A stretch of 64,000 nt of DNA from an uncultured Selenomonadales bacterium (GCA_947165295.1 CAMUZU010000006.1:20358-84357), one strand, 5' to 3'; positions 23,651-36,069 are shown, numbered from the stretch's first letter. Translations and numbers: made by a program. Notes: generated by a model from the letters alone, not told the origin.

Positions 23651-24397
23651 ATGAAATCGAACGTTGAAAATTCATTTGAAGCCGAAATCGCCAACGAGTA
23701 CGCCAAGTACGAGACGCTCACGGACGAACAACTCATCGTCGAGTTCAAGGAACACGAAAACACTTCCGCGCTTGATTATCTGATTCACCGCTACCGAAGT
23801 TTTGTGCGGGCGAAGGCGCGTTCGTATTTTTTAATCGGCGCCGACCGCGAAGACATCATCCAGGAAGGCATGATCGGTTTTTACAAGGCGGTGCGCGACT
23901 TCAAGAGCGACAAGCTGTCGAGCTTTCACGCCTTCGCCGAGCTGTGCGTCACGCGCCAAATTATCACGGCGATTAAAACCGCCACGCGTCAAAAGCACAT
24001 CCCGCTGAACTCCTACATTTCGCTTAACAAACCGATTTACGACGAAGACTCCGACCGCACGCTTTTGGACGTGATAAGCGGCGTCAAAGTTGCCGACCCC
24101 GAAGAATTAATCATCAGCCGCGAAGAGTTTCTGGCTATCGAAAAGAAAATGTCCGAAATCCTCAGCGAACTTGAGTGGCAAGTTTTAATGGCTTACCTTG
24201 ACGGCAAGTCGTATCAGGAAATTGCGGCGAGCTTGAATCGTCACGTCAAGTCAATCGACAACGCGCTCCAACGGGTCAAACGCAAACTCGAACGCTACGT
24301 TGCCAGCCGCGGCGAAACGATTGACATCACCACGGTTTATCGCGGGCTGTCCACGCTTGACCGTCGGATAAAAGCGCCCGCCGTCGCACACCGCTAG
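23651..24397 (+). CDS. sigH: RNA polymerase sigma factor SigH (sigma-70 family)
   Basis: LIHRYRSFVRAKARSYFLIGADREDIIQEGMIGFYKAVRDF...FAELCVTRQIITAIKTATRQKH...LDGKSYQEIA resembles Firmicute SigH. Confidence 0.85.
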   Translation: MKSNVENSFEAEIANEYAKYETLTDEQLIVEFKEHENTSALDYLIHRYRSFVRAKARSYFLIGADREDIIQEGMIGFYKAVRDFKSDKLSSFHAFAELCVTRQIITAIKTATRQKHIPLNSYISLNKPIYDEDSDRTLLDVISGVKVADPEELIISREEFLAIEKKMSEILSELEWQVLMAYLDGKSYQEIAASLNRHVKSIDNALQRVKRKLERYVASRGETIDITTVYRGLSTLDRRIKAPAVAHR

Positions 24398-24423
24398 ACG
24401 TTCACCGCGAACGTCTTTTTTCT
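24396..24423 (+). terminator. Intrinsic terminator after sigH
   Basis: AGACGTTC-ACCGC-GAACGTCT plus TTTTTTT. Confidence 0.75.
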
Positions 24424-24439
24424 TTGGGAGGCAACGCAC

Positions 24440-25093
24440 ATGAACTTCGCGAACAAACGATTTAACGTCGCCAAAACTTTGAACTGCGGCTTCAAGCGCG
24501 ACGGTAAACTTTTCGTGCGCCGCGACGAAATTGTCAACGGCTTCACGGCGGAAATTATAATCGACGCGGGCGGCTCTGTCACGACAAAAATTTTCGACGC
24601 GGACGGCGAACCTTACACGCTTCACCTTGTCGAAGGCGCAAGCGGAAGTTTCGTCGGCAGTGTCAAAGCTGCTCACGAAAAACTTTTGACCGAAGTCGCC
24701 GCGAACTGTTTCGACGAACAAATTTATTCGAGCGCGCAGGCTTTGAAGGTCGTCGCTCACATCCGCGAAAAATTTTCGGACGCGCCGGAATTTCTTTGGG
24801 ACAAGTTCCCGAACTTCGCGGTCTTTCGTCGTGCGGACAATCGCAAGTGGTACGCCGTGATTATGGTTTTGCCGCGAAACAAGTTGCAGTTGACGGGCAC
24901 CGACGAGCTTGAGATTTTGAATCTGCGCGCCTTGCCCGACGAGTTGGACGCGTTGATTGACGGCGAGAAATATTTTCGCGGCTGGCACATGAACAAGCGG
25001 CATTGGTTGACGCTCACGCTTGACGATACGCTTGCCGACGAAGAAATTTTTTCGCGGCTTGAGCAAAGTTATCGCCTTGCCGCACGCAAATAA
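24440..25093 (+). CDS. MmcQ/YjbR-family protein
   Basis: C-terminal ...FRGWHMNKRHWLTLTLDDTLADEEIFSRLEQSYRLA is typical of YjbR/MmcQ. Confidence 0.7.
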   Translation: MNFANKRFNVAKTLNCGFKRDGKLFVRRDEIVNGFTAEIIIDAGGSVTTKIFDADGEPYTLHLVEGASGSFVGSVKAAHEKLLTEVAANCFDEQIYSSAQALKVVAHIREKFSDAPEFLWDKFPNFAVFRRADNRKWYAVIMVLPRNKLQLTGTDELEILNLRALPDELDALIDGEKYFRGWHMNKRHWLTLTLDDTLADEEIFSRLEQSYRLAARK

Positions 25094-25096
25094 TCC

Positions 25097-25125
25097 TTGC
25101 CAAAAGCTTGCCCGTCGCGTATAAT
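25097..25125 (+). promoter_or_regulatory. Promoter of the candidate antisense RNA
   Basis: TTGCCA-17 nt-TATAAT. Confidence 0.6.
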
Positions 25126-25131
25126 TTCGTC

Positions 25132-25260
25132 GACAAACAAAAATGCCCCGACCGAAGTCGAGGCGAAGTGCTTGAAGGCGGTTTTGCCCCCGGATATATA
25201 GGAAACGCAGGTTAAACCTTTTGACAGTCGCCTAAAGTGGGGACTCAGGCGGCTGTTTTG
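25132..25260 (+). ncRNA. Candidate antisense (antitoxin) sRNA, convergent with the peptide mRNA
   Basis: Starts about 7 nt after the TTGCCA-17-TATAAT promoter. Possible end at hairpin ACAGTCGCC/GGCGGCTGT plus TTTT (25224-25259), or read-through to the 25410-25443 terminator. Confidence 0.3.
25135..25164 (-). terminator. Terminator of the candidate toxin mRNA
   Basis: GCCTCGAC-TTCG-GTCGGGGC hairpin, then ATTTTTGTTTG on the minus strand. Confidence 0.5.
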
Positions 25261-25325
25261 CTGAGCAGAAGCAGAATCGCTCCAGTAAGCAATGTCACGC
25301 GGATTATGATTCTAATCACACGCAT
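25245..25325 (-). CDS. Candidate type I toxin: 26-aa hydrophobic peptide MRVIRIIIRVTLLTGAILLLLSKTAA
   Basis: My own translation; the ORF is too short for the supplied track. SD AAGGGGG lies 8 nt upstream and is paired in a CCCCC/GGGGG hairpin. The gene has its own consensus promoter and terminator. Confidence 0.45.
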   Translation of the reverse strand: MRVIRIIIRVTLLTGAILLLLSKTAA

Positions 25326-25397
25326 CGTCGTCGCCCCCTTTCTCGGGGGACTTCGAGATTCAAACCGCCCTTGCCGCGAAGGCTTCAAGCAAGACCG

Positions 25398-25426
25398 ATT
25401 ATAGCAGTTGCGTCGCCCGAATTCAA
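25398..25426 (-). promoter_or_regulatory. Promoter of the candidate toxin mRNA
   Basis: On the minus strand, TTGAAT-17 nt-(TGc)TATAAT. Confidence 0.6.
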
Positions 25427-25443
25427 GGCGGCGTTATTTTTTT
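25410..25443 (+). terminator. Plus-strand terminator upstream of hypC
   Basis: CGTCGCC/GGCGGCG stem (one G-U pair), then TTATTTTTTT. Its loop contains the -35 box of the minus-strand promoter. Confidence 0.55.
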
Positions 25444-25470
25444 GCGAACGCGTCGACACGTCAAGAAACT

Positions 25471-25499
25471 TTGCAATGCGCGGGCAAGTGGTGTATTAT
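25471..25499 (+). promoter_or_regulatory. Promoter of hypC
   Basis: TTGCAA-17 nt-TATTAT. Confidence 0.55.
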
Positions 25500-25517
25500 C
25501 TGCGCGAGGTGATAAAA

Positions 25518-25766
25518 ATGTGTTTGGCATTTCCCGCGAAGGTCGTGGCGATTGACGGCGACTTGGCGACGGTCGAGCGTGCGGGCGTGAAACGTTCGGC
25601 AAGCTTAATGCTGTTGCCCGAAGCGAAAGTCGGCGACTTCGTGCTGATTCACGCGGGTTTCGCAATGCAAACGATTGACGAGAGCGAAGTTCAAATCCGC
25701 GACGCACTTGTTGCCGAAATGAACGGAGCACCGCGCACGGTCGAAAGTCTGTCGGAGGTCTCGTGA
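25518..25766 (+). CDS. hypC: Hydrogenase maturation protein HypC
   Basis: 82 aa beginning MCLAFPAKVV, the canonical HypC N-terminus. Confidence 0.9.
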   Translation: MCLAFPAKVVAIDGDLATVERAGVKRSASLMLLPEAKVGDFVLIHAGFAMQTIDESEVQIRDALVAEMNGAPRTVESLSEVS

Positions 25767-25940
25767 TGACCGACACGTTGAAGTTGGTCAAAAAAATTTC
25801 GGTCGCTTTAAAAGCGACGGAACAGTTGACGCGTTGCGGTCGTTCAACTTTCAAGTTTGTTGCCGCGTGCGGACGTCACAAAAATTTTTACGGGAGCTTG
25901 ACAAATGGCTGATACGTTGAAACTCGTCAAAAAAATTTCG
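25766..25940 (+). mobile_element. GCTTTAAAAGC-hairpin element (103 nt) flanked by diverged 36-bp direct repeats at the hypC/hypD junction
   Basis: DR1 ATGACCGACACGTTGAAGTTGGTCAAAAAAATTTCG, DR2 ATGGCTGATACGTTGAAACTCGTCAAAAAAATTTCG. The insert starts GTCGCTTTAAAAGCGACGGAACAGTTGAC. Confidence 0.65.
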
Positions 25941-26981
25941 CGGCTGTCGGCGGGCAAGCCTCGTCTGCGGTTCATGGAAGTTTGCGGCACGCACACCGTC
26001 GCGATTTTCCGTTCGGGCATTCGGCAAATCCTTCCCGAAAACGTCGAGCTTGTGTCGGGGCCCGGCTGTCCCGTTTGCGTCACCGACGACGATTTTGTCG
26101 ACAAGGCGATCGCTTACGCACGCAAGAAAAATTTCATCGTGGCGACGTTCGGCGACATGCTCAAAGTTCCCGGCACGCGTTCGACATTGGCACGGGAAGT
26201 AGCGAACGGCGCACGCGTCGAGGTCGTTTATTCGCCGCTGGACTGCCTGGACATCGCGAAGAAACATCCGCGCAAGTCGGTAATTTTTTTGGCGGTCGGT
26301 TTCGAGACGACGGCTCCGACGCAAGCGGCGACGGTCTTGGCGGCACGGGCTCACGGCGTGAAAAATTTGTTCATGCTGTCGGCGCAGAAACTTGTTCCGC
26401 CCGCGTTGAAATTTTTGCTTGACGACGCGGCTGTCAACGTCGACGGATTTTTGTTGCCGGGACATGTGGCGGTTGTCACGGGCGCGGACGAATTCAACTT
26501 CCTTGCGGACGAATTCAAAATCCCGTCGGCTGTCAGCGGCTTCGAGGCGGACGAAATTTTGACGGCGTTGACGAGTCTGCTTGAACAGGTCGACACGGGT
26601 CAAGTTCGCGTCGCCAACGATTATCGCAAGGTCGTCACAGCTCAAGGCAACGTCACCGCGAAAAAAATTCTCGCGCAGGTTTACGAGGTCACGGACGCTT
26701 CGTGGCGCGGCATGGGCATGATTGCGAATTCGGGTCTGAAGTTGCGCGACGAATTTGCCGACTTCGACATTGAACGCGTCGAGCCGATTGAAGTTGAACG
26801 CGTCGAAAAGAAGTCCGCCTGTCGTTGCGGTGAAGTTCTGCGCGGCATCGTCAAGCCGACGGATTGTCCGCTGTTCGGCAAGGTCTGTCAGCCGCTTCAC
26901 GCCATCGGCGCGTGCATGGTTTCCGTCGAAGGCGTCTGCGCGACCTGGTTCAAGTACGGCGGCGGGAAATTTAATTTTTGA
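25905..26981 (+). CDS. hypD: Hydrogenase maturation protein HypD
   Basis: 358 aa with FMEVCGTHT, GPGCPVCVT and the C-terminal ...CACGEVL-like Cys motif. Confidence 0.92.
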   Translation: MADTLKLVKKISRLSAGKPRLRFMEVCGTHTVAIFRSGIRQILPENVELVSGPGCPVCVTDDDFVDKAIAYARKKNFIVATFGDMLKVPGTRSTLAREVANGARVEVVYSPLDCLDIAKKHPRKSVIFLAVGFETTAPTQAATVLAARAHGVKNLFMLSAQKLVPPALKFLLDDAAVNVDGFLLPGHVAVVTGADEFNFLADEFKIPSAVSGFEADEILTALTSLLEQVDTGQVRVANDYRKVVTAQGNVTAKKILAQVYEVTDASWRGMGMIANSGLKLRDEFADFDIERVEPIEVERVEKKSACRCGEVLRGIVKPTDCPLFGKVCQPLHAIGACMVSVEGVCATWFKYGGGKFNF

Positions 26982-27053: not shown

Positions 27054-27428
27054 TCACAGGACGTATTGAAAAAATTTGTCTTCGTCGGGCAGGTAGAGCA
27101 ACATCAAAATTTCGGGCAACGCGCAAGTTTCTTTGATTTTTTTCGCGTAACTCACGTCACAGGAAGACAACCGAGCGTCACCTTTCGGATGAGTATGCAC
27201 GAAGCCGACGAAGGCAATTCCTTCCGCCGCCCACTCGCGAATTACTTCGTTGAGCTTGCGAACGTCGGGAATGTAATTGTTTTCCGTCGTGGTTCCCGTA
27301 ATATCGGGATAAAATTTCGTCACGACGCCTCTGCCGTCAACACCAAGGATACCGCCTGTTTCCCGGAGGCACAAAGTTTTTTTGATCTCATCGAGCACCG
27401 ATTTTTCAGTCGGAATTTCTTCTGCCAT
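27054..27428 (-). CDS. JAB/MPN (JAMM) metalloprotease domain protein
   Basis: 124 aa. Upstream Glu (RETGGILG) and a complete JAMM motif HTHPKGDARLSSCD (H.H.7.S..D). Confidence 0.75.
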   Translation of the reverse strand: MAEEIPTEKSVLDEIKKTLCLRETGGILGVDGRGVVTKFYPDITGTTTENNYIPDVRKLNEVIREWAAEGIAFVGFVHTHPKGDARLSSCDVSYAKKIKETCALPEILMLLYLPDEDKFFQYVL

Positions 27429-27609
27429 AGTCGCAGGAATCGTTGCCGTCCACCCAACGGCCGTAATGACCGCAGTAATATTGGTTTCGGCTGCTGTTGT
27501 ATTCGCCGCGGTAACTGCAGTCGGCGCAACAAAACCGAGCGAACTTGCCTTCGGGAATCGTCACAGGGACGACTTTTTTGACTTCAACTTTCTGCTCAAC
27601 ATCTTTCAT
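27406..27609 (-). CDS. Small Cys-rich protein (67 aa)
   Basis: GGGAGGT RBS. Sequence ...FCCADCSYRGEYNSSRNQYYCGHYGRWVDGNDSCDY. The 3' end overlaps the JAB start by 23 nt. Confidence 0.55.
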   Translation of the reverse strand: MKDVEQKVEVKKVVPVTIPEGKFARFCCADCSYRGEYNSSRNQYYCGHYGRWVDGNDSCDYGRRNSD

Positions 27610-27716
27610 GAATTATCAACCTCCCAAAACACAATAAACGCTTGAACCGAAAACTTTATCAACCTCCCTTCGTCGAAAGAAATTTTATATCGCACCGCAA
27701 ATCACATGTGCGCAAT

Positions 27717-28037
27717 TCAATCGTATGTGTTCAGTTTGCCGCTCAAAAGTTCTGCGTTGTACTTGTTGATTTTTACGTATGCCCAAGCCATGCAAATCAG
27801 GTTTACGGTCGGAATTGTTATAAACAAGCTGAATCCGAAAGTAAAAAGTCCGATGAGGGCGAATACGCAGTCCACGGCAATCATGATTATACCGCCGGAA
27901 ATAGTGGCATAAAGCAAACCGATCGGACCGAAAAGCAAGGTCAACATCAAGCCGATACCCATGCTTTTGGGCGAGCGGGCAATGATATATTTTTGTTCGC
28001 CTTGCACGTTCGGAGGAAGATTTTGATTTTCGTTCAA
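27717..28037 (-). CDS. Small integral membrane protein
   Basis: 106 aa with 2-3 TM helices. TTG start lies 8 nt after AAAGGAG. Confidence 0.6.
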   Translation of the reverse strand: MNENQNLPPNVQGEQKYIIARSPKSMGIGLMLTLLFGPIGLLYATISGGIIMIAVDCVFALIGLFTFGFSLFITIPTVNLICMAWAYVKINKYNAELLSGKLNTYD

Positions 28038-28067
28038 ATCAAAGACTCCTTTCGCTGAAAGAAATTT

Positions 28068-29078
28068 TTACGCTTCCCGCCACGAAGAAGTTTCGCGGTT
28101 GTAGACGTAACTTTGACCGCTTGCAAGTTTGAAAGTCGGCGAAATGTTGTCGCTTAAGGAAACCATTGCAACTTCGCCCGTGTTGAATTCGATTGCGATT
28201 GAATTGTCGCTTACCGACGTCGAAACAATGTCGCTCAAGGCCGCGTCGTAAAAGTGAACAGTGTCCGCGCCGTCGGTGTCGAAGACCAGGTCGTTGCCGT
28301 CGGTTCGGCTGACGAAAATGTTATCCGCCTGCGCCGTGCCGAAAAATTCGTTCGCGTTGCTCCAAGTTTCGTCTGAAGCCATGTCGTAAGATGAAGTCGA
28401 AATTCCGAGTGCCGTCTTGTAGTTGGCGATAAGTTCTTCAAAGGCGGCTTGCGATTCGTTGGAGGTGAACACGTTGACGCCCGTAAGCGCGCCGTTTTCC
28501 ACAATGACAACGTCGCCGTATATGCTTGAAAACATTACGTGATTTTCGATGACTTGTCCCGTCCATTCGGCAATGGAACCGTAGATGTAAATGACGTCTT
28601 GAGCTTTGTGGTCACGAATTTCATCATAACCGCAGTATGGAGCGATTTCAAAAATATCGACACCGTCACCGCTGACCAGTCTGTCGTAAGAAAAATCCAT
28701 GCTGCCGCCGTTTAAAGTTGCCATGCCGGAAGCGAAATTTGCAACGATATCTGAACCACCGTCGCCGCTCAAATAAACAGCAGAAGCGTTATCGGATATG
28801 TTAGCGACAATGTCGTCTCCCGCGCCGCCGAATAAAAATCCCATACTCGACATATTGCTCAGCGTATCATTGCCATCGCCTCCCGCTAAAAATGCGGGCA
28901 CAATATTCATCATTGTATCATCGCCGATACCGCCGTCAGTATAAGAAAGAAAGCCAGCTGTAAAGATGGTGTCGTTGCCACCGTAGCCGTAGACGTATCC
29001 TGAGTTGACGTAGTTTTCGATATAGTCGGCGTCTGCGGTACCTTCGACGGTGTTCAACGTCGTGTTGTAAATGTCCAT
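28068..29078 (-). CDS. RTX-like calcium-binding repeat protein
   Basis: 336 aa with repeated GG.G.D nonapeptide-type motifs (GGNDTIF, GGIGDDTM, GGDGNDTL, GGAGDDIV, GDGGSDIV). No N-terminal signal peptide. AAGGAGAG RBS. Confidence 0.7.
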   Translation of the reverse strand: MDIYNTTLNTVEGTADADYIENYVNSGYVYGYGGNDTIFTAGFLSYTDGGIGDDTMMNIVPAFLAGGDGNDTLSNMSSMGFLFGGAGDDIVANISDNASAVYLSGDGGSDIVANFASGMATLNGGSMDFSYDRLVSGDGVDIFEIAPYCGYDEIRDHKAQDVIYIYGSIAEWTGQVIENHVMFSSIYGDVVIVENGALTGVNVFTSNESQAAFEELIANYKTALGISTSSYDMASDETWSNANEFFGTAQADNIFVSRTDGNDLVFDTDGADTVHFYDAALSDIVSTSVSDNSIAIEFNTGEVAMVSLSDNISPTFKLASGQSYVYNRETSSWREA

Positions 29079-29325: not shown

Positions 29326-30321
29326 ATGGACGACAAAATTTTGGCGGCACACGGCGCGGGCGGCAAGTTGAGTTCGCAGCTGTTGCACGAAGTGATTCTG
29401 CCCGCCTTCGACAACGAAATTTTAAACGAGCTTCACGACGGCGCGAAAATCGGTCGACTTGCAATGACGACGGACAGTTACGTCGTGCGGCCGATTTTTT
29501 TTCGCGGCGGAAACATCGGCAAACTCGCGATTTGCGGCACGGTCAACGATTTGGCCGTCACGGGCGCAATTCCAAAATTTATTTCCGTCGGCTTGATTAT
29601 CGAAGAAGGCTTCGACATCTCCGCGCTGAAAAAAATCGTCGGCTCAATGGCAGATGCGGCGCGTGAGTCCGGCGTCAAAATCGTCACCGGCGACACAAAA
29701 GTTGTCGGCAAAGGTCAGGCGGACGGAATTTTTATCAACACCGCAGGCGTCGGCGAACTGATTAACGGCGTCGATATTTCTGCAAAAAACGTTCGCGCAG
29801 GCATGAAAGTTCTAATTTCGGGCACAATCGGCGACCACGCAACGACAATTCTCGCAGGAAGACACGGTTTACAGCTTCCCGACAGCGTAAAATCCGATTG
29901 TGCGCCCTTAAACGGCCTGATTAAAGAAATTTTGACCGTCGAACCGCAAATTTCTATGCTTCGTGACGCTACTCGCGGCGGAATTGCCGCTGTGTTGAAC
30001 GAAATTGCCCAATCAGCGCACGTCGGCATACTGATTGACGAAAAAAACATCCCCGTGCATGATGAAATTCGCGGCGTGTGCGATATTTTGGGCTTCGACG
30101 TGCTTGAACTCGCCAATGAAGGCAAATTTATCGCGATTGTGCCCGAAAATTCCGCCGAAAACGTTCTTTCGGTCATGCACAAGCACATTTACGGCAAAAA
30201 CGCGGCCATTATCGGCGAAATCACGTCGAATTCGCCCGAAAAAGTCGGTTTGAAGACTTTAATCGGCGGTGTACGCATTGTTGACATGCCTGCAGGCGAA
30301 CTTGTGCCGCGAATTTGCTGA
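29326..30321 (+). CDS. hypE: Hydrogenase maturation protein HypE
   Basis: 331 aa, AIR-synthase-like fold, with the HypE C-terminal ...PRIC. Confidence 0.92.
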   Translation: MDDKILAAHGAGGKLSSQLLHEVILPAFDNEILNELHDGAKIGRLAMTTDSYVVRPIFFRGGNIGKLAICGTVNDLAVTGAIPKFISVGLIIEEGFDISALKKIVGSMADAARESGVKIVTGDTKVVGKGQADGIFINTAGVGELINGVDISAKNVRAGMKVLISGTIGDHATTILAGRHGLQLPDSVKSDCAPLNGLIKEILTVEPQISMLRDATRGGIAAVLNEIAQSAHVGILIDEKNIPVHDEIRGVCDILGFDVLELANEGKFIAIVPENSAENVLSVMHKHIYGKNAAIIGEITSNSPEKVGLKTLIGGVRIVDMPAGELVPRIC

Positions 30322-30334
30322 GGAGGCGACCTTC

Positions 30335-32428
30335 ATGGAGCAACGAACGCGTGAAATCTTGAAATTTCTGCTTCGCGAACAAGATTTTCGCACAACAGCC
30401 GAGGTTGCGGCTCAAATTTCCGTCAGCGCAAAGACTATTTCGCGTCAACTGCCCAAAGTTGAGCAAGTTTTGAACTCCGCAGGCCTAAAACTCGAAAAAA
30501 AGTCCGGCGCAGGCCTCTTAATCGTCGGAAGTGAGGTCAAACGCTACGCTTTGGCCGCTCATTTGAAGTCAATCGACAAAAAAGAGTACACTCCGAGCGA
30601 AAGACGGTCGATTATCATCAGTAAATTGCTTTCAAGCCGCGAACCGATTAAACTTTTCGTGCTTTCAAGCGCAGTTCACGTCACTGATTCGACGATTAGC
30701 AACGATTTGGACAAGTTGGAGCCCTGGTTTCGCGAACAAAGCCTTAAACTTTTGCGAAAACCGGGTCTCGGAGTCAGTTTGCTCGGCGATGAACGCGATT
30801 TTCGACGCGCAATCGTGCGTTATATCTATAATCACGTCGGCGAAGAGCGTTTGCTCGGCCTTTTGCAGGACAATTTGCCCGAAAATGACGACGCATCGGT
30901 CGCTCAAGTGTCAAAATTCCTGCTTGAACTCATTGATGCGGGCGAATGGCGGCGTTTGGAGCAACTTATTCGCGTCACGGAGGCCGATTTGGGCTGCAGA
31001 TTGTCCGATAATGCCTTTATCGGGCTTGTTGTGCACCTTTCGTTGGCACTTCGACGCATAAAACACCACGAATCTATCACTTTGGACAACGAAATCACCG
31101 TTCGACTGCGTGAAACTCGCGAATTTGCCGCCGCGAAGAAACTTTCAAGCAAAATTTCGGAGATTTTCGGCGTCGAAATGCCCGAAAGCGAAATTTTTTA
31201 CATCACAATGCACATTTTGGGCGCACGAAGCCGTTTCAGCTCCGCAAATTTGGGAAATATCTCCATGATGGACAATTTTCGGCTCGTTACGTTGGCAAAA
31301 AAGGTCATGAAACACGCCGCGAACATCACCGGACGCGATATTGATAAGAATCAGAGCCTTTTGGCGGGTCTCGTGAACCATCTTGCGCCCACAATCAGCC
31401 GTTTAAAGCTCAATATGGACATCCGCAACCCACTTTTGAACGAAATTCGCACGCATTACCCCGAATTAATGAGTTTAACGCGCCGTTGCGTCGCAGAAAT
31501 TGAGTCTGAAGTCGGAAAAACGCTCCCCGAAGCCGAAATTGCCTACATTGCAATGCATTTGGGCGCGGCTTTGTCCGACAGTGAGAAGTTTTTGCACGCA
31601 ATTCACCGCGTTGTTGTCGTTTGTCCGACCGGAATGGGCACTTCAAGGCTTTTGGCAAGCCGTTTGCGCGCAAATTTCCCCACGATCAAGATTGTAGACG
31701 AAATTCCCGTGCTTGAATTGACTTCCGACTACATTTCAAGCAAAGATTTCGACTTTATCGTCTCGACTGTGCCGATTTCGCGGGCAAAACGACCCGTTAT
31801 CGTCGTCAGTGCCGCGTTAATCGACTCAGATAAGCAAAAAATCGACGCCGAACTGTCCCGACAGAACAAAAATTTCCTCGCAAGTGCCGAAGAACCCGAA
31901 TGGAGGCCGCAATTTTTCGATGCAATGACGAAAATCACCGCTTACGGCCGCACAATCGCCGAATTGATGACGAATTTCTTCTTTGTACGCGAAAAAATCG
32001 ACTCAATCAACGCCGCGTGCGAACTTGCGGGCAATTTGGCGGGCGAAAACCCCGAAAATCGCCAAGAAATTGCCAAATCGTTGCTTTTGCGCGAAGATGA
32101 AGGCTCAACTTTGATTGTCGGGCGGCATATGATACTTTTACACTGCAAAAGTGCCGCCGTGAAGGCCGCTTCGTTCGGAATTTTGCAACTCGGCGACGGT
32201 TTTTGCTATCCTGCGGGCTCTGAAGTCGTAAAAACTGCGATTGTTTTGCTTGCGCCGGCCGATTCCGACGAATGCGCGCTCGAAACTATCGGTCATATCG
32301 CTTCCGTGCTCTTGGATCGCTGGGGATTTATCGAAATTCTTCACGAAGGCGACGGAAATGAGATTCGCAGCGAGATTTTGAAGATTTTTGAGGACTTCTA
32401 TCGAACGCGCCTGAAGGAACTGCTGTAA
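30335..32428 (+). CDS. PRD-domain transcriptional regulator with PTS EIIB-like and EIIA-like modules (MtlR/LicR type)
   Basis: 697 aa. N-terminal wHTH (ILKFLLREQDFRTTAEVAAQISVSAKTISRQL), PRD segments (YITMHILGA, YIAMHLGAA), EIIB-like VVVCPTGMGTSRLLASRLR and a C-terminal EIIA-like domain. Confidence 0.8.
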   Translation: MEQRTREILKFLLREQDFRTTAEVAAQISVSAKTISRQLPKVEQVLNSAGLKLEKKSGAGLLIVGSEVKRYALAAHLKSIDKKEYTPSERRSIIISKLLSSREPIKLFVLSSAVHVTDSTISNDLDKLEPWFREQSLKLLRKPGLGVSLLGDERDFRRAIVRYIYNHVGEERLLGLLQDNLPENDDASVAQVSKFLLELIDAGEWRRLEQLIRVTEADLGCRLSDNAFIGLVVHLSLALRRIKHHESITLDNEITVRLRETREFAAAKKLSSKISEIFGVEMPESEIFYITMHILGARSRFSSANLGNISMMDNFRLVTLAKKVMKHAANITGRDIDKNQSLLAGLVNHLAPTISRLKLNMDIRNPLLNEIRTHYPELMSLTRRCVAEIESEVGKTLPEAEIAYIAMHLGAALSDSEKFLHAIHRVVVVCPTGMGTSRLLASRLRANFPTIKIVDEIPVLELTSDYISSKDFDFIVSTVPISRAKRPVIVVSAALIDSDKQKIDAELSRQNKNFLASAEEPEWRPQFFDAMTKITAYGRTIAELMTNFFFVREKIDSINAACELAGNLAGENPENRQEIAKSLLLREDEGSTLIVGRHMILLHCKSAAVKAASFGILQLGDGFCYPAGSEVVKTAIVLLAPADSDECALETIGHIASVLLDRWGFIEILHEGDGNEIRSEILKIFEDFYRTRLKELL

Positions 32429-32436
32429 ATTTTCAC

Positions 32437-32464
32437 CCCGTCAACCGTGACGGGAATTTTTTTT
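32437..32464 (+). terminator. Intrinsic terminator after the PRD regulator
   Basis: CCCGTCA-ACCG-TGACGGG plus a T8 run. Confidence 0.8.
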
Positions 32465-32555
32465 GCGACAACGTCACGACGTGAAAACTGTACTCGACAG
32501 ACGGTTACGCGCCCGAAAAAATTGTGTTACACTTGCGACGAAAGGAGGCACGTCC

Positions 32556-33455
32556 ATGAAAGATTATGTCGCTGAATTCCGACAAGCCGTCGCCGCCATT
32601 GACGCCGACGCGCAACGGGTCAACATCATCAACGCCGGCATCATGAATCACGGCAAAAGTTCGCTGCTTAATTCGTTGCTCGACAAAGTTGTTTTCGCCG
32701 AACAAGACGTGCGCACGACGATTGCAGTTCAAGCCGAACATTGGCGCGACAACGTTTATTTAATTGACACGCCCGGTCTTGACGCGAAATCCGAAGACGA
32801 CACCGCCGCTTACGAGGCCTATCGACGCGCCAACGTTATTTTGTTCGTCCACCGCGTCGACACGGGCGAATTGCACAGGGACGAAATCGACGGTCTCAAT
32901 CGAATCAAAAACATTTTCGCAGGCGGAAACTTCGTCGAACATTTTTGCTTGATTTTTACTGTCACCGATTCAAAGGAAACGCCCGAAGATCTCAAAGTCA
33001 TTTGCGACAAATCGCTTGCCGACATCAAAAATCACTGCGGACTGTCGGGCTTCAGAAATTTTTGCGTGTCGAATTCGCTGTACAGGCAGGGCAAAGACGA
33101 ACACGAAGATTTATTCGTCGAGGACAGCGGCGTCCTTGAACTGCGCGAATATCTCGAACGAAATTTCGACAAGTGGCGCGGAGAAAATCAAGCCGTCCGC
33201 AACGCCCGAATTGCCCGCGAAAAAGACGACTTCATTTCGCGACTGCAACGGGAGCGTTCCGACGTTCAAGCGCGTATTCAGTCGAAAAGCGAACGAATTC
33301 GGCAGCGTCAACAAAATTTTTTGCACAAAGTCGAAACGGCGTTAAGTCAGCGGCGCGACGACGAATCACGTTACAATTCCGAATCACGGCGGCTTGACGA
33401 AATGCGTCGCGAACTGCAAAATCTGCGTGACCGTTGGAACCGCGAACGTTACTGA
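32556..33455 (+). CDS. GTPase (dynamin/Era-like G domain) with a C-terminal coiled coil
   Basis: 300 aa. G1 AGIMNHGKSS, G3 DTPGL. The R/E/Q-rich C-terminal ~100 aa is heptad-like. AAAGGAGG RBS. Confidence 0.75.
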   Translation: MKDYVAEFRQAVAAIDADAQRVNIINAGIMNHGKSSLLNSLLDKVVFAEQDVRTTIAVQAEHWRDNVYLIDTPGLDAKSEDDTAAYEAYRRANVILFVHRVDTGELHRDEIDGLNRIKNIFAGGNFVEHFCLIFTVTDSKETPEDLKVICDKSLADIKNHCGLSGFRNFCVSNSLYRQGKDEHEDLFVEDSGVLELREYLERNFDKWRGENQAVRNARIAREKDDFISRLQRERSDVQARIQSKSERIRQRQQNFLHKVETALSQRRDDESRYNSESRRLDEMRRELQNLRDRWNRERY

Positions 33456-33474
33456 AATTTTCGGAGGTGATTTT

Positions 33475-33876
33475 ATGGCGTTCATTTGGGCTGTACCTGC
33501 GGGCGCGCTCGTTTACAAAGCCGCTCACGGCGATTATTCCGACCACAGCAGACACAGCAGGTATCACGAATACGGCGATTCGGCTTTGCGTGAACAAATT
33601 CGTCGCAAGGAGACCGACATCAGCCGCAAAGAATCCGACGTTGAAACTGCGCGTCGACGCATGGAAGACAATTTCAATTCGCGTGTCAATGAACTTAAGC
33701 GCGAACGAAATTATTCGGGCTTGAATTACGTGCCGAACATGATGGTTTCCGAAGTCAAAGACAACATGCGCCGCGAACTTGACAACGAACTCAAGCACGA
33801 CCGCGACGAACTTGCCGCCATTGACGATATGATTAGCCGAATTAACGAACTTGAATTGCAGGTGAAGCGCAAATGA
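33475..33876 (+). CDS. Coiled-coil protein, paralog 1 (hydrophobic N-terminus plus His/Ser/Tyr-rich patch)
   Basis: 133 aa. MAFIWAVPAGALVYKAAHGDYSDHSRHSRYHEYGDS..., then a coiled coil. GGAGGTG RBS. Confidence 0.65.
   Translation: MAFIWAVPAGALVYKAAHGDYSDHSRHSRYHEYGDSALREQIRRKETDISRKESDVETARRRMEDNFNSRVNELKRERNYSGLNYVPNMMVSEVKDNMRRELDNELKHDRDELAAIDDMISRINELELQVKRK
33764..33836 (+). repeat. 73-nt segment identical to 34192-34264 (3' ends of the two coiled-coil paralogs)
   Basis: Compared base by base by eye. Confidence 0.85.
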
Positions 33877-34301
33877 GCGACCTTGAAGATTATTACTACG
33901 AAAGGTTTGCAGAAGCTTTTAATTGTGAAAATGTAGCGCGTACAATATTTCGTTCAATTGCGGGAGCTACGGGTCTTGCCGTCAAAGGTGTCAACGACAA
34001 ACTCGCCGAAATTCGTTGGGCGATTGAAGACAAAGAAAAATTGATTCGCCGCAAAGAATTCGACGTTGAAAATCTTCGGCGTTGCGTCGACGAAAATTTT
34101 TCGACACGAATCAACGAACTTCGTCGCGAAAAATTTTATCCCGCGTTTAACTACTCGACGACCGCGAATTTGTTGACGAACATCAAAGCCGACATGCGCC
34201 GCGAACTTGACAACGAACTCAAGCACGACCGCGACGAACTTGCCGCCATTGACGATATGATTAGTCGGATTAACGAATTGGAACTTCAAAGCACAAGGTG
34301 A
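33873..34301 (+). CDS. Coiled-coil protein, paralog 2
   Basis: 142 aa with an ATGA overlap with paralog 1. The C-terminal 35 aa is identical to paralog 1 (MRRELDNELKHDRDELAAIDDMISRINELELQ). Confidence 0.65.
   Translation: MSDLEDYYYERFAEAFNCENVARTIFRSIAGATGLAVKGVNDKLAEIRWAIEDKEKLIRRKEFDVENLRRCVDENFSTRINELRREKFYPAFNYSTTANLLTNIKADMRRELDNELKHDRDELAAIDDMISRINELELQSTR
34192..34264 (+). repeat. 73-nt segment identical to 33764-33836
   Basis: Compared base by base by eye. Confidence 0.85.
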
Positions 34302-34305
34302 TTTT

Positions 34306-36069
34306 ATGAGCTACATTACGCAGACCGTCGACGAATTTTTTATCAAGCTCGACAAGATGCAACGCGACCTTGACAAATTTTCGCAGAACCTTGACCGTCG
34401 CAGCGAACAAATTCCGTCGCTGTTGAAAACTTTTGAGCAGACCGTTTTCACTGCGAGCGGCAAAAAAATTTCGGGCAATAACGCCGTCGAACGCGCCGCT
34501 CAAAAATCGTTGGACAACATGCGCGCCGTCGTCGAAAGTTGGCGTGACAAAATCGAAGCCGACCGCAAAGGCAAACAGTTTATCGCGAAGAACGAAAAAT
34601 TTCTCGTCGTGATGGTTTTCGGTGCAGTCAAAGCCGGCAAGTCGACACTCGGAAATTTCTTCGCGGGCAAAAATTTTCTCAACGCGCCGTTCGATAACCG
34701 TTACAAACAAATTTCCAAGCCGATTTTCGAGACCGAAGAGAGCGGCCGCGACACGGGCGGAATTGAAACCGATTCAAGCGGCGACACCTGGTTTAAAGAA
34801 GGTCACGTCGACACGACGGGCGCGATTCAATTTTTCACGCTCAGCGGACTGCGCTGGATTGATTCGCCCGGCACGGGAGCCGTCGGCAAGTCGGGCGACA
34901 GCAAAGACATGACCGCGCTCGTCGAAGAATATTTGCGATATACCGACATGTGCATTTTCCTGATGAACAGCGGCTCGCCCGGACTGCAAGACGACATGCG
35001 ATATATTCAAAAACTCAGCCGCGACGGGCAGGACGCCTTGATTGTCATCACGCGCTCCGACAAAAACAAAGCCGTAATTTTGCGCGACGAAAACGGCAAC
35101 AAGCAACGCGGTTCCGTGCTTGTCCCGAAAGACGACGCGACCCGCAAACTTCAAGAGGACGACATCTGCAAGCGCGTCAAGGAAGAATATCCCGAAGTCG
35201 ACGTGCAAAAGTTCCGCGCAATCAGCACGTCGACCGCGTTGGCATGTGAAGCCGTCAACGAACAGAGCGACGAAAAATTTCGTGACAGCGGTCTCGATAA
35301 GCTCATGCAGATTTTGGGCGACAAAGTCAGCGACAATGCCATTGCCCGTAAGCAGGAAAATCCGCGCAGGTTGCTCAACGGTTTCGTCGACACCATTGTT
35401 GACGACCTGAAAAATTTCGACAGCGACCTTGACGAAATGACCGCCGCCGTCGAAAAATACAAAGCCGACATGAAACGCTTGACGACGCTGATTGTCAGCA
35501 ATGTGAGCCGTGAAGTTCGGTCGGAAATTTCATCACGCGCCATTGATTGGAACCGTCAAGTCAACCGCGGCGGGAAAGTCGACAACGAGACAATCGCCGC
35601 CGCCGTCACCGAAATTTTGCGCGACAAACTTAACGCCGAAATCAATTCGCAGATGCGCCGCGTCATCGAAGATTTTCAGAGCAACGAACTCAAAACCGTC
35701 AAGGCGAACATTTCCGCCGCCGCGCTCGAAAAGAAAACCGTCGAAATTTCGCACACGTACACCGAAAGCTACACCGTCGAACGCGAACCCGAAGGCATCA
35801 TCGAAAACATTCGCGGCTTTTTCGGCAAGAAATATTACCGCCGCGAAGACGAGACGCGCACGAAAACGCAGACGATTGACTTGGGCACGAACCTCGACGA
35901 GTTTTTGGACAGCTTGACGCCGCAGGTTGAACGATACGCCAAAAGTCAAGCCGAAACGACTCTTGCCGAGTTGCGCGAAAAATATTTCGTCGAACGCGAA
36001 AATTTTGCCCGTCGGATGCGCGGCGCGATTGACAAACTTCGCGGCGAATTGCTTGCGTTGAAGTTTTGA
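34306..36069 (+). CDS. Dynamin-like GTPase (587 aa)
   Basis: G1 FGAVKAGKST, G3 DSPGTG, G4-like ITRSDK, followed by a long helical stalk-like region. Confidence 0.75.
   Translation: MSYITQTVDEFFIKLDKMQRDLDKFSQNLDRRSEQIPSLLKTFEQTVFTASGKKISGNNAVERAAQKSLDNMRAVVESWRDKIEADRKGKQFIAKNEKFLVVMVFGAVKAGKSTLGNFFAGKNFLNAPFDNRYKQISKPIFETEESGRDTGGIETDSSGDTWFKEGHVDTTGAIQFFTLSGLRWIDSPGTGAVGKSGDSKDMTALVEEYLRYTDMCIFLMNSGSPGLQDDMRYIQKLSRDGQDALIVITRSDKNKAVILRDENGNKQRGSVLVPKDDATRKLQEDDICKRVKEEYPEVDVQKFRAISTSTALACEAVNEQSDEKFRDSGLDKLMQILGDKVSDNAIARKQENPRRLLNGFVDTIVDDLKNFDSDLDEMTAAVEKYKADMKRLTTLIVSNVSREVRSEISSRAIDWNRQVNRGGKVDNETIAAAVTEILRDKLNAEINSQMRRVIEDFQSNELKTVKANISAAALEKKTVEISHTYTESYTVEREPEGIIENIRGFFGKKYYRREDETRTKTQTIDLGTNLDEFLDSLTPQVERYAKSQAETTLAELREKYFVERENFARRMRGAIDKLRGELLALKF

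Follow-up and report, generated by a model that had tools for sequence, protein, structure and literature searches.

Sequence and comparative analysis of a 64,000-nucleotide stretch of DNA from an uncultured Selenomonadales bacterium (hereafter the window) indicates that the 424-bp gap between its yjbR and hypC genes holds a gene for a 26-residue hydrophobic peptide, MRVIRIIIRVTLLTGAILLLLSKTAA, and, facing it, the gene for an antisense RNA. We place the greater confidence in the view, drawn from sequence elements and their conservation, that this module comprises a genuine gene for a small protein and an antisense RNA dedicated to it; that the two act as a chromosomal type I toxin–antitoxin pair, belonging to an unnamed family, is probable. 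The preliminary description of the locus had put it forward as a type I candidate, and the features kept in 12 further copies support it as a strong one.

Those copies were recovered from protein and profile searches and from the DNA around the hits. A search with the extended open reading frame (ORF) gave three relatives and a profile search of 1.84 billion representatives gave seven more; P0007 and P0011, from the profile search, were rejected as repeat-protein false positives. The resulting set of 13 copies (window, L081, L085, L087, L088, L090, L094, L096, L097, L100, L101, L101b, and L102b) comes from independent rumen or gut metagenome contigs. All known members are metagenome-derived, and the family is ascribed to rumen Selenomonadaceae.

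The peptide gene and its mRNA

The elements of the peptide gene in the window are as follows.

25426–25398, minus strand: promoter of the peptide mRNA, TTGAAT-17-TGcTATAAT, 10/12 matches plus an extended −10 TG; start at ~25391
25391–25135, minus strand: predicted peptide mRNA of ~257 nt, with a 5′ untranslated region (UTR) of ~65 nt, the 26-codon ORF, and a 3′ UTR of ~110 nt
25362–25391, minus strand: 5′ strand of a long-range 5′/3′ helix (UGCUUGAAG ... GGGCGGUUU) in the minimum free energy (MFE) fold
25334–25349, minus strand: hairpin over the Shine–Dalgarno (SD) sequence AAAGGGGG in the MFE fold; G-run 25338–25334 pairs with C-run 25349–25345, loop GAGAAA
25325–25245, minus strand: ORF for MRVIRIIIRVTLLTGAILLLLSKTAA, 26 codons; ATG 25325–25323, stop TGA 25247–25245
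25169–25186, minus strand: 3′ strand of the long-range helix, CAAAACCGCCUUCAAGCA, directly upstream of the mRNA terminator and within the region covered by the antisense RNA
25164–25134, minus strand: intrinsic terminator of the mRNA, GCCTCGAC-TTCG-GTCGGGGC plus U-tract; stem-loop 25164–25145, U-tract 25144–25134

Variation among the 12 full ORFs, to which the following counts refer, is concentrated at third codon positions (16/8/23 variable sites per codon position), and the mean ratio of nonsynonymous to synonymous change (dN/dS) is 0.18, indicating purifying selection. The other two reading frames contain no codons with synonymous changes only. Amino-acid replacements are conservative (I/V/M/L/F), nine residues (M1, R2, R9, T14, G15, I17, L18, A25, and A26) are invariant, and the position of the stop is fixed, with all three stop codons represented. 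Conservation starts precisely at the ATG of the 26-codon frame, the in-frame extension upstream not being conserved, and pairwise identity averages 76% over the ORF vs. 30% over the proximal 3′ UTR. The ORF of the near-identical strain L081 differs from that of the window at five sites, namely four synonymous third-position changes and a TGA-to-TAA change of the stop, while the ~65 nt directly 3′ of the ORF are, unlike the ORF, scrambled. By this pattern of substitution the 26-codon ORF is a real coding gene, which bears out the peptide assignment of the preliminary description. This gene, which is under clear selection, escapes standard gene callers. The encoded peptide carries a cationic face (R2, R/K5, and R9) in its N-terminal third and is hydrophobic in the remainder; at 26 residues it is well within the limit of ~60 residues by which type I toxins are generally defined.

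An equivalent mRNA promoter scoring at least 9/12 is present in 12 of the 13 copies, and a near-perfect SD, AAAGGGGGTGA (consensus AAAGGAGGTGA), stands 7–8 nt from the ATG. The mRNA terminator folds at −15.1 kcal/mol (z −5.1); seen from the antisense RNA, whose 5′ hairpin is its complement, it is kept with compensatory changes in the homologues. The predicted minus-strand RNA as a whole folds at −101.4 kcal/mol (z −4.4), none of 200 shuffled sequences folding as well.

Two structures within this fold involve the 5′ UTR. The SD had been described as locked in a CCCCC-GAGAAA-GGGGG hairpin, and this hairpin is indeed part of the MFE fold; a C-run/G-run hairpin covers the SD in 12/13 copies, with UUUCCU/AGGAGG in its place in L094, and partition-function calculations give an unpaired probability of at most 0.025 for the G-run (>97% paired) in 10/13. 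The second structure, for which a pairing of about 15 bp between the 5′ end and a segment just upstream of the terminator had been claimed, appears in the MFE fold of the window as 16 long-range pairs that join mRNA nt 7–36 with nt 214–229. The helix of this 5′/3′ clamp has two parts (GCUUG.. pairing with ..CAAGC, and GGCGGUU pairing with AACCGCC). Of six copies folded over their full length, four show it in the MFE fold, and it is the best intermolecular duplex in 10/13. Inspection of the sequences by eye revealed that the L094 clamp is changed on both strands, GUGUCGAA/UUCGGCAC replacing GUGCUUG/CAAGCAC, and that L100 and L101 maintain pairing through one-sided G·U changes. The argument for the clamp is this recurrence of the same helix among the copies, not the energy of the duplex. 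From the modeled folds, we infer that the SD hairpin and the long-range pairing would together keep translation of the mRNA low.

The convergent antisense RNA gene

The plus strand of the same interval carries the following elements.

25097–25125, plus strand: antisense RNA promoter, TTGCCA-17-TATAAT, 11/12 matches; start at ~25132
25132–25261, plus strand: predicted antisense RNA of ~130 nt; in single-sequence folds a 5′ hairpin, a mostly open middle with GUGCUUGAAGGCGGUUUUGCCCCC, and a 3′ terminator hairpin
25223–25259, plus strand: antisense terminator T1; stem 25225–25233 with 25247–25255, UUUU 25256–25259
25410–25443, plus strand: distal terminator T2 (GCGUCGCC / GGCGGCGU + UUAUUUUUUU), hairpin 25410–25433 with U-tract to 25443, overlapping the −35 box of the mRNA promoter

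The arrangement of these elements and its conservation indicate that the module includes a gene for a cis-encoded antisense RNA, equipped with a promoter and a terminator of its own. The two near-consensus convergent promoters of the preliminary description were both recovered, with the scores listed above, and a convergent promoter scoring at least 9/12 lies directly past the mRNA terminator in all 13 copies, that of L094 reaching 12/12. In 12 copies the stop codon and the antisense start beyond it are 84–127 nt apart; in L096 the distance is 220 nt, because a degenerate extra 3′ UTR has been inserted. This extra copy of the 3′ UTR (L096 ~660–800) lies between the mRNA terminator and the antisense promoter, and the antisense RNA predicted there is ~240 nt long. 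The predicted antisense RNA overlaps ORF codons ~22–26 and the whole 3′ UTR. Its 5′ hairpin is the complement of the mRNA terminator, and an RNAalifold consensus of 11 homologues recovered this hairpin together with a small central hairpin and the 3′ terminator hairpin.

The terminator hairpin T1 overlaps the end of the peptide ORF, its 3′ half being the complement of the last ORF codons (T-A-A-stop) and its 5′ half the sole conserved island in the proximal 3′ UTR. In the window T1 folds at −19.4 kcal/mol on the plus strand vs. −14.6 kcal/mol on the minus strand. The hairpin and its U-tract are present in 13/13 copies, and the antisense strand is the more stable in 11/13 (for example, −20.9 vs. 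−10.5 and −17.4 vs. −4.4 kcal/mol, antisense vs. sense). Each hairpin contains one to six G·U pairs, which would be C·A mismatches in the sense RNA. In the T1 alignment 90% of cells are paired, compared with 19–74% when the partner strand is slid; U·G is the commonest type at two of the pairs, and one pair changes from A-U to G-C, matching synonymous ACA/ACG variation at codon 24.

The distal hairpin T2 likewise favors the plus strand (−13.1 vs. −8.3 kcal/mol on the minus strand). It is skipped by a simple terminator scan since its loop has 9 nt, and its counterparts in L085 (z −3.0) and L096 (z −5.3) fold as well. In this model T2 would halt antisense transcripts that run past T1, or else terminate a longer antisense RNA of ~310 nt. 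The preliminary description had assigned each transcript one terminator and had the plus transcript fully antisense to the 3′ part, possibly to all, of the mRNA. Both hairpins that it named are real, but a nearer and better-conserved plus-strand terminator lies at T1; the complementarity to the 3′ part stands, with the antisense RNA most likely ending at 25223–25259 and so reaching only the last approximately five codons and the 3′ UTR.

Mobility of the module and its genomic setting

The module occupies at least five gene neighborhoods. Besides the slot between yjbR and hypC, it is found next to genes for a Gate-domain transporter and a VitK2_biosynth protein (in both orientations), next to an MmeI-type restriction gene and one for an acyltransferase, upstream of an MCP gene, and with other flanks. 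Head-to-tail arrays hold at least two or three module copies (L101:1–973 and L102:1–751), whose peptides have diverged (MRMVKFIIRMT.., MRVIKFVVRVI.., and the 24-residue MFKIIIRVVILTGIILWALTKTAA). On L097–L099, at ~1800–1910, an intact module is followed downstream by a 5′-truncated second copy without start codon or SD, in which promoter-like sequence is joined straight to approximately codon 6 (..IIIRVTVLTGAILLLLSNTAA*); this second copy is a decayed duplicate. At L103:934–1256 a segmental tandem duplication has put codon 26 of the peptide in frame with internal sequence of the VitK2_biosynth gene that lies upstream; the junction lies at a GCCGCC microhomology and creates a 105-residue fusion ORF (P0013), after which an intact second module follows.

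A different rearrangement affects the yjbR–hypC slot itself. In the sister strains represented by L082:1–402 and L084:1433–1913, the slot that holds 25097–25443 in the window contains a second cassette (cassette B), which replaces the transcribed interior between the same two promoters and encodes an unrelated hydrophobic peptide of 25 residues, MDKINWFQLILSIIQTVLTLLMYLE. Its SD lies within a CCUCU-UUCG-AGAGG hairpin, and T2 adjoins it in both strains. In L093 a homologue of the cassette (MDKYDWLMLLLSLIQTVLTLLMYLNS) is likewise faced by a convergent antisense promoter, TTGAAA-17-TGaTATTAT. The cassette B peptide matches no Pfam, NCBIfam, or PADLOC family at E up to 10; from its layout, cassette B looks like a second unnamed type I-like family. 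Varied neighborhoods, tandem arrays, truncated remnants, and cassette replacement are typical of chromosomal type I toxin–antitoxin loci. Searches of plasmids, phages, and viral contigs by tBLASTN and pattern scans left the peptide unmatched, though the low-complexity filter may hide hits.

The genes and signals that border the module in the window are these.

24440–25093, plus strand: YjbR-domain gene, flanking the module upstream of hypC
25471–25499, plus strand: hypC promoter-like site TTGCAA-17-TATTAT, directly past T2
25518–25766, plus strand: hypC, flanking the module on the other side

hypC thus has a promoter-like site of its own, and the hyp genes could be expressed independently of the antisense promoter. 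The region 24000–26500 contains seven promoter-like sites, compared with 0.9 ± 0.9 in shuffled sequence.

The window was assigned to Selenomonadaceae from its sigH–yjbR pair. Seven rumen or gut metagenome-assembled genomes of this family (L001–L007; YjbR identity 62–74% and SigH identity 90–94% to the window) keep sigH–yjbR and carry other genes after yjbR, with no trace of the element by BLASTN or nhmmer; the yjbR/hypC junction is therefore a synteny break, and an intergenic region conserved throughout the lineage was ruled out on the same grounds. The junction is common to the near-identical strain L081 and to the two further strains with cassette B. Two of four metagenome matches to a 22-nt flank (L083 and L086) were discarded as chance matches within unrelated coding sequence. 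tBLASTN and BLASTN searches with the peptide and the intergenic region found no second copy within the window.

Farther downstream the hyp cluster is itself interrupted. Between hypD (25905–26981) and the gene for a hypE-like AIRS protein (29326–30321) lies a four-gene block on the minus strand (27054–29078), also carried by L081, that encodes a Prok-JAB/RadC-like protein of 124 residues (PADLOC JAB hits), a Cys-rich ORF of 67 residues, another ORF of 106 residues, and a protein of 336 residues that weakly matches RTX and calcium-binding-repeat models. The block is possibly an inserted defense or ubiquitin-like-system fragment. Beyond it, a PRD/PTS-EIIA/Mga-type regulator (30269–32428) is encoded upstream of two adjoining genes for dynamin-like or MMR_HSR1 GTPases of 330 and 587 residues (32463–36069, plus strand).

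Mechanism, alternatives, and relation to known systems

The sequence elements, their conservation, the selection on the coding frame, the strand-specific hairpins, and the mobility of the module are the basis from which we infer transcription, RNA–RNA pairing in vivo, the RNase involved, and toxicity. In the mechanism that we favor, the σ70-type promoter at 25426–25398 would drive the ~257-nt mRNA for the 26-residue peptide; this mRNA would be poorly translated, its SD being locked to the C-run that precedes it and its two UTRs being clamped together. The opposing promoter at 25097–25125 would start the antisense RNA inside the U-tract of the mRNA terminator; most antisense transcripts would end at 25223–25259 (~130 nt) and read-through transcripts at 25410–25443. 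The antisense RNA, fully complementary to the mRNA from approximately codon 22 through the 3′ end, would pair with the 3′ ~125 nt of the mRNA, including the 3′ strand of the clamp, and itself carries the partner sequence of that strand. The resulting sense/antisense duplex would be cleaved, most likely by RNase III, for which bsrG/SR4 and txpA/RatA offer a precedent (PMC3834814, PMC8594479). Should antisense RNA levels fall, the stable mRNA would be translated and the peptide would enter and damage the membrane.

Several observations weigh against this interpretation or parts of it. The z-scores of the 5′/3′ duplex against shuffled sequences are modest (−3.3 to +0.8), because the segments are GC-rich. 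Covariation in T1 is limited, with a double change in only one pair, because the copies are closely related and represent few lineages, and the T1 U-tract is interrupted (GUGUUG or GUAUUG) in the copies whose peptide ends in S-N-T-A-A. Blocking the antisense target in silico alters SD accessibility (partition function) in only 3/13 copies, and with so inconsistent a change a translational effect of the antisense RNA is unsupported. A related scheme, an SD switch in which the conserved 3′ GAGGGGC would compete with the SD for the C-run and the antisense RNA would close the SD again, gained no support as a general mechanism, the SD being already closed in 10/13 copies. Database comparisons also fall on this side. 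The antitoxin RNA families of Rfam, including RatA, the SR4 type, Fst RNAII, Sok, Sib, Rdl, IstR, and OhsC, are unmatched, and the peptide matches no toxin profile (Hok/Gef, Fst, Ldr, TisB, Ibs, ShoB, TxpA/BsrG-type, and others) in Pfam, NCBIfam, or PADLOC at E up to 10.

A more elaborate version of the toxin–antitoxin hypothesis, which we regard as doubtful, would make the locus a portable expression socket that exchanges unrelated toxin cassettes, with an antisense RNA that neutralizes the mRNA by strand displacement of the clamp. One end of such a socket would be the mRNA promoter with the T2 hairpin and the other the antisense promoter with its first ~12 transcribed bases, between which cassettes A (MRVI..SKTAA) and B (MDKINWF..MYLE) would have been swapped between strains. 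The antisense copy of the 5′-UTR clamp strand (GUGCUUGAAGGCGGUUU) would then open the clamp and expose the mRNA to decay, rather than acting by simple duplex formation.

Apart from a toxin–antitoxin pair, the locus might encode a non-toxic small membrane protein, such as a stress-responsive modulator or an accessory subunit, that is tuned by its cis-antisense RNA. Coding selection and the antisense gene would fit such a regulatory pair equally well, the peptide has no homology to any proven toxin, and the SD hairpin may merely attenuate translation. However, no partner gene is conserved and the neighborhoods differ wholly among the copies, while arrays, remnants, and the swap at one site with an unrelated hydrophobic-peptide cassette typify selfish type I loci; in addition, the multilayered silencing by SD hairpin, 5′/3′ clamp, and antisense RNA suggests a dangerous product. 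We consider a regulatory pair unlikely, though it deserves to be kept in mind.

Two further explanations, each of which we judge very improbable, deny the existence of one or the other gene. The strong fold of the minus transcript, with a terminal helix closing a multibranched structure, is what a structured noncoding RNA would show, the 26-codon ORF then being incidental; against this stand the third-position bias of the variation, the dN/dS value and the frame-specific synonymous changes, the use of all three stops at one position, the onset of conservation at the ATG, the SD at its short distance from the start codon, and the absence of a match in Rfam. Indeed, the Rfam comparison gave zero matches at gathering score in the 64-kb window and only chance-level ones up to E = 10 in 24900–25700; thus a housekeeping or other known small RNA, whose covariance model the preliminary description had named as a check, was rejected. 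The plus promoter, for its part, faces hypC, 390 nt downstream, and could in principle serve it through a long leader or riboswitch, or be a chance match. Yet all 13 copies keep its position, most of them away from any hyp genes, two plus-strand terminators and the promoter-like site at 25471–25499 intervene before hypC, and riboswitch families in Rfam are unmatched.

If the toxin–antitoxin reading holds, the family fills a taxonomic gap by providing type I candidates in the Negativicutes and Selenomonadaceae. To our knowledge, nearly all catalogued type I systems come from Enterobacteria, Helicobacter, Bacillus, Staphylococcus, Enterococcus, and Clostridioides. In the literature we found no report of type I systems in Negativicutes, Selenomonas, or Selenomonadaceae and none with the peptide motif; no source names any member of the family, and most copies are not called as genes. 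The 13 natural variants define the invariant residues of the peptide, the ends of both RNAs, and a natural site of cassette exchange. They also suggest that rumen Selenomonadaceae carry variable, mobile loci of this type, which may matter for phage defense, island stabilization, or persistence.

Among characterized toxins, ShoB of the Escherichia coli ShoB/OhsC system (MTDCRYLIKRVIKIIIAVLQLILLFL) likewise has 26 residues, the N-terminal part being cationic and the tail aliphatic, as in the family described here. It is identical to the L085 peptide (MRVIKIIIRVTLLTGAILLLLSKTAA) at eight of nine positions over RVIKIII-V, a short, low-complexity match with a pairwise E of 0.002 and no profile support, and the C-terminal halves differ (LTGAILLLLSKTAA vs. 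LQLILLFL). Moreover, shoB and ohsC lie in divergent orientation without overlap (PMC8594479), whereas the module is convergent with a 3′ overlap. Compared with hok/sok, the module lacks a Hok/Gef domain and a conserved overlapping leader ORF like mok.

The hok mRNA is closed at full length by pairing of its 5′ and 3′ ends, its SD lies in local hairpins, and the primary transcript is translationally inert. In AapA1/IsoA1 of Helicobacter pylori, too, the ends of the toxin mRNA pair, the SD is sequestered, and the primary transcript is inert (PMC6733600). The module shares with both systems the 5′/3′ fold-back of the mRNA and the SD in a local hairpin. In contrast, the antisense RNAs of hok/sok and AapA1/IsoA1 target the 5′ part of the mRNA (PMC8594479) and that of the module its 3′ end, and the module gives no evidence of activation by 3′ processing. 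The hok-like fold-back first ascribed to the locus thus stands, while the position of the antisense RNA and the missing mok-like frame do not fit hok/sok; the resemblance is limited to a fold-back analogous to those of hok and aapA1, which does not demonstrate membership or homology.

The best reading is that the module represents a new family of a known kind, with the organization of the Gram-positive 3′-overlap class (txpA/RatA and bsrG/SR4, which fall in the T1TAdb groups TxpA/RatA and BsrE-G-H) and not that of hok/sok. The peptides of bsrG/SR4 and txpA/RatA have 38 and 59 residues, respectively; that of the module has 26 and no sequence similarity to either. Unlike both systems, the module has a long 5′/3′ clamp and resides in a diderm Firmicute (Selenomonadaceae), and, compared with SR4, its antisense RNA has no predicted effect of pairing on SD accessibility. 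The defining trait of the Gram-positive class is an antisense RNA located on the 3′ side and overlapping the end of the ORF (PMC8594479). In bsrG/SR4 and txpA/RatA, as in the module, the genes converge, with the antisense RNA positioned on the 3′ side of the toxin mRNA and an overlap of ~100–125 nt that takes in the ORF end (PMC8594479); the SD of the toxin mRNA is partly sequestered there too (PMC3834814), the product is a small hydrophobic peptide, and the loci are chromosomal, island-like, and variable in location.

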